A program made the position numbers and the translations under genes. Of a stretch of 64,000 nucleotides of DNA, positions 47,940 to 49,712 are shown one piece after another; within the stretch, counting starts at the first letter, position 1; each line of letters opens with the position of its first letter. The stretch comes from Escherichia coli (GTDB lineage Bacteria; Pseudomonadota; Gammaproteobacteria; Enterobacterales; Enterobacteriaceae). The stretch is taken from assembly GCF_013315695.1 (NCBI RefSeq), contig NZ_CP054353.1; one strand, written 5' to 3'. The notes under the pieces were generated by a model. That model searched no databases, was not told where the DNA came from, and saw nothing but the letters and a program-made list of their open reading frames with translations.

Positions 47940-49712
47940 GTGCGATTATTTGCTCAATTAAGCTGGTATTTCCGTCGGGAATGGCGTCGCTATCTCGGGG
48001 CTGTCGCCTTGCTTGTCATTATCGCGATGCTGCAACTGGTTCCGCCAAAAGTGGTTGGTATTGTTGTCGATGGCGTGACAGAACAACACTTTACTACCGG
48101 GCAGATCCTGATGTGGATCGCCACCATGGTGCTGATTGCCGTTGTGGTTTATCTCCTGCGTTACGTCTGGCGCGTATTGCTGTTTGGTGCGTCTTATCAA
48201 CTGGCTGTTGAACTGCGTGAAGATTATTACCGCCAGCTAAGCCGGCAGCATCCTGAGTTTTACCTGCGTCATCGCACGGGTGACCTCATGGCTCGTGCGA
48301 CCAATGACGTCGATCACGTCGTGTTTGCCGCCGGAGAAGGGGTGCTGACGCTGGTGGATTCACTGGTAATGGGCTGCGCTGTGTTGATTATGATGTCTAC
48401 GCAAATTAGCTGGCAGTTGACCTTATTTGCCCTGTTACCGATGCCAGTGATGGCGATCATGATTAAGCGCAACGGCGATGCCTTGCATGAACGTTTTAAG
48501 TTGGCGCAGGCGGCGTTTTCCAGTCTTAATGACCGAACTCAAGAAAGCCTCACCAGTATCCGTATGATCAAAGCCTTTGGTCTGGAAGATCGTCAGTCTG
48601 CGCTATTTGCCGCAGATGCTGAAGACACCGGTAAGAAAAACATGCGTGTGGCGCGTATTGATGCCCGTTTCGATCCGACAATCTATATCGCAATTGGTAT
48701 GGCGAACTTGCTGGCGATTGGCGGCGGTAGTTGGATGGTGGTGCAGGGCAGTTTAACGCTGGGCCAGCTCACCAGTTTTATGATGTATTTAGGTCTGATG
48801 ATTTGGCCGATGCTGGCGCTGGCATGGATGTTTAACATAGTGGAGCGTGGTAGTGCTGCGTACAGCCGCATTCGCGCGATGCTGGCGGAAGCGCCGGTGG
48901 TGAATGATGGTAGCGAACCCGTGCCGGAAGGTCGTGGCGAACTGGATGTAAATATTCGCCAGTTCACGTATCCGCAGACTGACCATCCTGCGCTGGAAAA
49001 CGTCAATTTCGCCCTGAAACCCGGTCAGATGGTAGGTATTTGCGGGCCGACTGGTTCCGGCAAAAGTACCCTGTTGTCGCTCATTCAGCGTCATTTCGAC
49101 GTCAGCGAGGGGGATATCCGCTTTCATGATATTCCTCTGACGAAGTTACAACTCGATAGCTGGCGTAGCCGCCTGGCGGTAGTTAGCCAGACACCGTTCC
49201 TTTTTTCCGACACCGTGGCGAATAACATCGCGCTGGGTTGCCCGAATGCCACCCAGCAAGAGATTGAGCATGTCGCGCGGTTAGCCAGCGTGCATGACGA
49301 TATTTTGCGTTTACCGCAAGGTTACGATACAGAAGTGGGCGAGCGCGGCGTGATGCTTTCCGGTGGGCAAAAACAGCGTATCTCCATTGCTCGTGCGTTA
49401 TTAGTCAACGCGGAAATCCTCATCCTTGATGATGCGCTTTCGGCAGTAGACGGACGCACAGAGCACCAGATCCTGCATAACCTGCGTCAGTGGGGGCAGG
49501 GAAGAACGGTAATCATCAGTGCCCATCGCCTTTCTGCACTGACGGAAGCCAGTGAAATTATTGTGATGCAGCACGGACATATCGCCCAGCGTGGCAATCA
49601 TGATGAGCTGGCGCAACAAAGTGGCTGGTATCGCGATATGTATCGCTATCAACAACTGGAGGCGGCGCTCGACGACGCTCCGGAAATTCGCGAGGAGGCC
49701 GTCGATGCGTAG
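47940..49712 (+). CDS. mdlA: ABC transporter permease/ATPase MdlA
   Basis: 590-aa ORF, Walker [13 protein letters not shown] signature LSGGQKQR. Confidence 0.95.

Follow-up and report, generated by a model that had tools for sequence, protein, structure and literature searches.

At the junction of mdlA and mdlB, two neighbouring genes of Escherichia coli predicted to encode half-transporters, the last eight nucleotides of the first gene are also the first eight of the second, which raises the question of whether short overlaps of this kind are genuine and whether they tie the translation of one gene to that of the other. An earlier note on this DNA, made from the letters alone, had listed seven such overlaps, read them as signs of translational coupling in several operons and held that they help to confirm the start codons. 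We looked at these junctions within the whole stretch of 64,000 nucleotides from contig NZ_CP054353.1, here called the window, which is the tgt–acrA region of the E. coli chromosome (equivalent to approximately 426-485 kb in K-12) in a strain other than K-12. The part that holds mdlA and mdlB (47000-52000) is 100% identical to complete E. coli chromosomes and is present in 5,423 of 5,426 genomes. Our analysis indicates that the junctions are very probably genuine short overlaps between genes on the same strand, with the start codon and the ribosome-binding site of the downstream gene placed within the last codons of the upstream one.

The mdlA/mdlB junction and its conservation

Gene coordinates are those of the RefSeq annotation of the near-identical isolate AF3, transferred onto the window. 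The features at the focal junction, with the ATP-binding cassette abbreviated to ABC, are:

47940..49712, plus strand: mdlA, SmdA-family ABC half-transporter of 590 amino acids with a GTG start (NCBIfam NF008055, 1264 bits against a cut-off of 845, residues 1-589)
49705..51486, plus strand: mdlB, SmdB-family ABC half-transporter of 593 amino acids (NCBIfam NF008056, 1182 bits against a cut-off of 746, residues 1-583)
49705..49712, plus strand: mdlA/mdlB overlap of 8 nucleotides, octamer ATGCGTAG, with the same geometry in AF3 and K-12
49692..49698, plus strand: Shine-Dalgarno (SD) sequence GAGGAGG of mdlB, 6 nucleotides upstream of the ATG and encoding Glu-Glu in the tail of MdlA

The focal site reads ...GAGGAGGccgtcgATGcgTAGttt, with the ATG of mdlB at 49705-49707 and the TAG of mdlA at 49710-49712, 5 nucleotides beyond the first base of the ATG. 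Candidate starts for the downstream genes were all in-frame ATG, GTG and TTG codons between the nearest in-frame stop on the upstream side and +120 nucleotides, scored by pairing with the 3' tail of the 16S ribosomal RNA. The annotated ATG of mdlB gave an anti-SD duplex of −11.8 kcal/mol, by far the best of its 7 in-frame candidates, with the other six at −2.1 to −5.8 kcal/mol; random positions in the window have a mean of −2.0 ± 2.4 kcal/mol and approximately 0.4% of them reach −10 kcal/mol or lower.

Both proteins carry the Pfam domains ABC_membrane and ABC_tran, and the match of MdlB to NF008056 begins at profile position 1. By these family matches mdlA and mdlB are predicted to be adjacent half-transporter genes of the SmdAB/MdlAB type, each product having a transmembrane domain and an ATP-binding cassette. 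As in the heterodimeric multidrug exporters of that name the SmdA and SmdB equivalogs are matched over their full length, far above the cut-off, and the genes are adjacent, whereas heterodimer status is taken here from a literature table and from family naming, no MdlAB structure having been found. The nearest solved structures to MdlB are those of the YheH chain of a B. subtilis multidrug ABC exporter.

To follow the conservation of the junction we searched genomes representative of individual species for DNA that could encode the MdlA motif WYRDMYRYQ, using a degenerate pattern. It hit 120 loci in 34 named genera, among them Escherichia, Salmonella, Klebsiella, Enterobacter, Citrobacter, Pantoea, Erwinia, Pectobacterium, Dickeya, Serratia, Hafnia and Rouxiella, and 117 of these loci were evaluable for junction geometry. 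The mdlB start codon stands at exactly −8 relative to the mdlA stop (negative distances denoting overlap) in 109 of these 117 Enterobacterales loci (93%). In 19 loci only a single start can be placed ahead of the conserved WPT(L/I)KRL motif of MdlB, and in 17 of them it lies at −8. The shared octamer takes 17 versions of the form NTGNNT(AA/AG/GA), for example ATGCGTAA, ATGCGTAG, ATGGCTAA, ATGAATAG, GTGAATAA and ATGCGTGA, in which positions 4-5 vary, whereas start codon, stop codon and a T at position 6 never do; for one locus, L121, the start was assigned by eye, giving the junction octamer ATGCGTGA that is also found at L032.

Departures from −8 comprise distances of −14 (4 loci), −11 (3 loci) and −4 (Rouxiella) and a 12-nucleotide gap in an insect-symbiont Pantoea. 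The gap separates mdlA from mdlB in the Pantoea symbiont of Nezara viridula (L019), and the Rouxiella case is a 4-nucleotide ATGA overlap in Rouxiella aceris (L055), where MdlB has a longer N-terminus.

The core of the mdlB SD sequence is kept together with the geometry, with A at −12 in 99, G at −11 in 88 and G at −10 in 107 of the 109 loci. The MdlA tail that follows QLEAAL is hypervariable, with 100 distinct sequences of 22-33 amino acids among the same 109 loci. Its last two codons nevertheless always fit xAT/xGT-Gxx (ending in …DA, NA, HA, DE, NE or HG), a pattern of final residues that arises because the embedded mdlB start codon dictates the codons. The junction on the other side of mdlA served as an internal control: the spacing between decR and mdlA takes 35 different values, from 23 to 350 nucleotides, in 76 of the same loci, and the −8 geometry of mdlA/mdlB is thus much more stable than that of its neighbour. 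By these comparisons the start codon of mdlB is well supported.

A further reading is that the −8 geometry is under active selection across the Enterobacterales, with constraint on the MdlA tail coming chiefly from its role as ribosome-binding site of mdlB and not as protein, its Glu-Glu codons supplying the SD sequence and its last codons being set as xAT-Gxx. We put this forward tentatively, with doubts that slightly outweigh our belief in it. If it holds, mdlA/mdlB would be a clean natural model for the way in which −8 spacing links production of one half of a heterodimeric transporter to that of the other. The junction is in any case a convenient natural test case for coupled translation of complex subunits at −8 overlaps, the SD sequence and the geometry being kept in at least 34 genera and the protein tail not.

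Overlaps elsewhere in the window and their start codons

Taking as an overlap any sharing of one or more nucleotides between the annotated coding regions of same-strand neighbours, we found overlaps in 8 of the 42 co-directional adjacent pairs in a list of 60 genes, with lengths of 1 to 38 nucleotides. Besides mdlA/mdlB these are:

4756..4763, plus strand: parD/parE, 8 nucleotides, GTGTATAA, with the GTG start of parE and the TAA stop of parD
12717..12739, plus strand: thiL/pgpA, 23 nucleotides, in RefSeq and K-12 annotation
17104, minus strand: xseB/ispA, 1 nucleotide, TAATG
19607..19644, minus strand: panE/yajL, 38 nucleotides, the longest in the window and identical in curated K-12
24593..24609, minus strand: TacA-family antitoxin/GNAT toxin, 17 nucleotides, in RefSeq annotation
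26320, minus strand: cyoC/cyoD, 1 nucleotide, TAATG
26924..26934, minus strand: cyoB/cyoC, 11 nucleotides, ATGGCAACTGA

The seven overlaps of the earlier note (mdlA/mdlB, thiL/pgpA, xseB/ispA, cyoC/cyoD, cyoB/cyoC and both toxin-antitoxin pairs) are all real and match the RefSeq-based coordinates; panE/yajL, with 38 nucleotides, had been left out of its list, and the ATGA that it described as shared by xseB and ispA at 17104 is a 1-nucleotide TAATG overlap, the minus strand reading gagTAATGgac. The note had also named curated K-12 starts as a check, with downstream starts placed elsewhere as the outcome that would speak against it. In the curated K-12 sequence NC_000913.3 none of the six pairs present in K-12 has its downstream start elsewhere and all six have equal overlap lengths, and the overlaps are identical in the RefSeq annotation of AF3, including the 8 nucleotides of parD/parE and the 17 nucleotides of tacA/GNAT toxin. 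The cyoABCDE and xseB-ispA-dxs operons of K-12 are established, and overlapping coding regions leave no space for a terminator and a promoter between the genes.

The window holds no excess of overlaps. Five of its 42 pairs lie within −8 to +6 nucleotides, compared with 707 of 2,987 unidirectional pairs (24%) in a published genome-wide count for E. coli, and the −4 (ATGA) class, the commonest genome-wide, accounts for 0 of the 42. All six overlaps of at least 8 nucleotides have a length that leaves a remainder of 2 on division by three. In the genes of the window the frequency of ATG or GTG per triplet is 0.044 in the +1 offset frame vs 0.008 in the other frame (5.3-fold), and stop codons are about equally frequent in both offset frames (0.052 and 0.059). 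The excess of ATG and GTG accounts for the bias of the longer overlaps, which is the expectation from coding-sequence composition. What sets the −1 and −4 classes apart is that they reuse the stop codon itself.

The SD sequences embedded in the upstream genes are of uneven strength. Scores are clearly above background for yajL (−9.1 kcal/mol), cyoC (−8.7 kcal/mol) and cyoD (−8.4 kcal/mol), moderate for parE and the GNAT toxin (both −5.6 kcal/mol) and weak for pgpA (−3.3 kcal/mol) and ispA (−3.2 kcal/mol). For pgpA a rival codon, the in-frame TTG at 12726, 9 nucleotides past the ATG at 12717, has a slightly better SD score. The NCBIfam PgpA equivalog matches the annotated protein only from residue 7 onwards, so that a compatible start must lie inside thiL and the overlap must be at least 5 nucleotides; pgpA would initiate at ATG 12717 or at TTG 12726, and either codon overlaps thiL. 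The non-overlapping ATG at 12765 (+48) was considered as a pgpA start and excluded, the family profile beginning upstream of it. The DJ-1 domain of YajL sets in at residue 4, which makes a downstream start impossible, and for the GNAT toxin 24609 is the sole in-frame candidate in the whole interval considered, which runs from the in-frame stop on its upstream side to +120 nucleotides. Full-length matches to PDB and NCBIfam entries are weak evidence on N-termini, since annotated sequences are inherited.

Judged on annotation and sequence comparison, the downstream starts of the overlapping pairs appear to be true initiation sites, that of mdlB by its conservation and the rest by curated annotation and profile starts. 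The idea that overlaps help to confirm start-codon choices therefore stands only in part: the choices do match K-12 and RefSeq, but it is annotation and comparative data that confirm them and an overlap by itself does not. The gene starts of the window are reliable, a result with little value beyond annotation quality.

Translational coupling and its alternatives

Three spacings, −4, −1 and −8, are enriched in prokaryotes, and with −8 and −1 both represented here the description of these overlaps as expected biology was apt. The supplementary table of Huber et al. 2023 already holds all six K-12 pairs with the distances found here (thiL/pgpA −23, xseB/ispA −1, panE/yajL −38, cyoC/cyoD −1, cyoB/cyoC −11 and mdlA/mdlB −8), so that the layout, which is common, is already known and nothing in it is new. 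The same table flags the mdl and cyo pairs as complex and thiL/pgpA, xseB/ispA and panE/yajL as 'not complex'.

Stop-to-start distances fall within approximately −8 to +10 nucleotides for mdlA/B and parD/E (−8) and for xseB/ispA and cyoC/D (−1), with cyoB/C (−11) borderline, and outside that range for tacA/toxin (−17), thiL/pgpA (−23) and panE/yajL (−38). The termination-reinitiation pairs of Huber et al. 2019/2023 and Brown & Wade 2025 are likewise on the same strand, with stop and start a few nucleotides apart and an SD sequence in the upstream open reading frame, and several pairs in the window resemble the coupled pairs of Huber et al. further in being subunits of one complex (MdlAB, CyoBCD, toxin-antitoxin). 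They differ from those pairs in that none is of the −4 (ATGA) class, in that the overlaps of 17, 23 and 38 nucleotides lie beyond the range of −8 to +10 that the authors treat as predictive, and in that coupling is here something that we infer from the observed overlaps, start sites, embedded SD sequences and −8 conservation. Coupling is plausible at the −1, −8 and −11 pairs. The overlaps of 17, 23 and 38 nucleotides suggest coupling or reinitiation weakly, because coupling in reporters falls as the overlap grows.

A ribosome terminating at the mdlA UAG would find itself a few nucleotides from the mdlB AUG, with GAGGAGG 6 nucleotides upstream of that AUG. The AUG could then be reached by two routes, one in which the terminating ribosome or its 30S subunit reinitiates and one in which a free 30S subunit initiates de novo, and by either route MdlA and MdlB, as halves of a heterodimeric ABC exporter, would tend to be made in balanced amounts. 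This reasoning may extend to cyoB/C/D and to both toxin-antitoxin pairs. The three longest overlaps are more likely to be served mainly by de novo initiation and may have arisen incidentally as starts and stops drifted.

Several results weigh against coupling as the explanation of these junctions. In reporters coupling declines faster with overlap than with spacing, and one systematic series found none at −25 nucleotides. In the K-12 ribosome densities of Burkhardt et al. 2017, which have no entries for mdlA, mdlB, thiL, panE and yajL and which are used here on the assumption that they reflect rates of synthesis, the cyo genes stand at 1101 (cyoA), 633 (cyoB), 793 (cyoC), 1269 (cyoD) and 223 (cyoE), giving ratios of 1.25 for cyoC/cyoB and 1.6 for cyoD/cyoC. 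Ratios above 1 at the cyo overlaps mean that reinitiation is not the sole route there and that de novo initiation at the strong embedded SD sequences must contribute. Opening the start region costs 10.1 kcal/mol at overlapping starts and 10.1 kcal/mol at the other starts of the window, with random intragenic positions at 14.2 kcal/mol. In 91 other loci the mdlB start region is likewise more open than intragenic controls (12.8 vs 16.1 kcal/mol, p = 2.5e-11), its opening energy exceeding that of the controls in 18% of them, and an open start region of this kind is what an ordinary site of independent initiation shows. Finally the conservation of −8 could in part reflect how few mutations are able to shift the start or the stop.

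The likeliest alternative is that the overlaps have no coupling function, the downstream genes being translated independently from their embedded SD sequences and the overlaps being neutral outcomes of compaction and of drift in starts and stops. In addition to the densities of cyoC and cyoD above those of their upstream genes and to start regions as accessible as at non-overlapping genes, it is favoured by the strong SD sequences of mdlB, yajL, cyoC and cyoD (−8.4 to −11.8 kcal/mol), by ATG/GTG frequencies that alone predict the frame of the long overlaps and by the unrelated products of the pairs tabulated as 'not complex'. It fits less well with a −8 geometry that is held at mdlA/mdlB in 93% of loci while the MdlA tail and the adjacent junction vary freely, with the weak SD sequences of ispA and pgpA (−3.2 and −3.3 kcal/mol), which would make for poor initiation alone, and with two published results, namely a 4.5-fold enrichment for complex subunits among pairs within −8 to +10 nucleotides and a steep dependence of reinitiation on distance in reporter assays of native pairs at −4 to +1 nucleotides. 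We regard independent initiation throughout as unlikely, though it deserves to be taken seriously.

In the K-12 densities of Burkhardt et al. 2017 xseB stands at 220, ispA at 92 and dxs at 69. The ispA/xseB ratio is 0.42, and together with the weak SD sequence of ispA this fits partial reinitiation. Across the overlapping junctions the ratios (0.42, 1.25 and 1.6) stay within approximately 2.4-fold, against a fall to 0.18 at the +11 junction of cyoD/cyoE, which speaks for the main reading.

A different form of dependence on mdlA would arise if the ribosome-binding site of mdlB were hidden in a hairpin with the last approximately 40 nucleotides of mdlA and exposed only while ribosomes translate mdlA. 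The minimum-energy fold of the window strain does pair GGAGGCCGUCGAUGCG with GCGCUCGACGACGCUCC, so that the mdlB SD sequence and AUG are both paired with upstream mdlA, at an opening energy of 15.5 kcal/mol that lies above the gene-start mean of 10.1 and near the intragenic value of 14.2 kcal/mol. This hairpin is not conserved, the junction being more open than the controls across the 91 other loci, and a conserved structure that sequesters mdlB is not supported. We consider RNA unfolding of this type improbable.

That the overlaps are artefacts of annotation, one or more true downstream starts lying further 3' with no overlap left, is very improbable: the weak SD sequence of pgpA, its slightly better TTG at +9 and the ATG at +48 can be cited for it, but they are answered by the agreement of curated K-12 starts for six pairs, by the PgpA and YajL domain starts and the lone GNAT toxin start described above and by an mdlB start that is kept across genera and is the sole possible one in 17 species, which for mdlB largely refutes it.

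Toxin-antitoxin pairs and other features of the window

Two of the overlapping pairs lie in accessory islands:

4521-5037: ParD/ParE toxin-antitoxin island between secF and yajD (Pfam ParD_antitoxin 1.7e-22, ParE_toxin 4.7e-14)
23076-24904: accessory island between yajR and cyoE, with a tetratricopeptide-repeat protein gene and the TacA-family antitoxin/GNAT toxin pair (Pfam)

By family match and gene order both pairs are predicted type II toxin-antitoxin systems. Position 1 of the ParE_toxin profile aligns at ParE residue 2. The second pair matches Pfam TacA1 (1.1e-17) and GNAT (1.1e-07), and its toxin aligns with chain A of PDB 7BYY over residues 1-180 (E = 1.3e-115) and is all but identical to that crystallised E. 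coli protein. As in known type II operons (ParDE; TacA/GNAT) the toxin gene follows the antitoxin gene and begins within its end, the shared stretch being 8 nucleotides in parD/parE and 17 in tacA/GNAT toxin. Unlike the other overlapping pairs these are absent from K-12, the ParD/ParE island occurring in 426 and the TacA/GNAT pair in 1,368 of 5,426 complete E. coli genomes; their starts thus have no curated K-12 counterpart and are compared with RefSeq only.

In the transfer of annotation from AF3, 57 of 59 coding sequences had a valid start, a valid stop and an open frame in the window. For the two exceptions, hupB and ybaV, both distant from all junctions discussed, the open reading frame coordinates of the window itself were substituted. 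The final list of 60 genes includes bolA, which was added, and leaves out pseudogenes, the IS1 open reading frames and fadM.

Other features concern insertion elements and one start site. The window has one copy of IS1, downstream of fadM (43115-43841), whereas in AF3 copies flank fadM on both sides (L002 10014-11841) in an arrangement that resembles a composite transposon; the extra copy in AF3 accounts for a coordinate offset of 771 nucleotides to the left of fadM. An IS200/IS605-family element splits the lipoprotein gene yajI (6693-9109) and contains a frameshifted tnpA pseudogene and an intact gene for a 402-amino-acid TnpB/InsQ RNA-guided endonuclease (7598-8806), and the two yajI fragments are pseudogenes in the RefSeq annotation of AF3. 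HupB is given as 96 amino acids from an ATA codon (39707) in the RefSeq annotation of AF3 and as 90 amino acids from a GTG 18 nucleotides downstream (39725) in curated K-12; the DNA is identical at this site, so that this is a disagreement over the start site between the two annotations (39707-39727).

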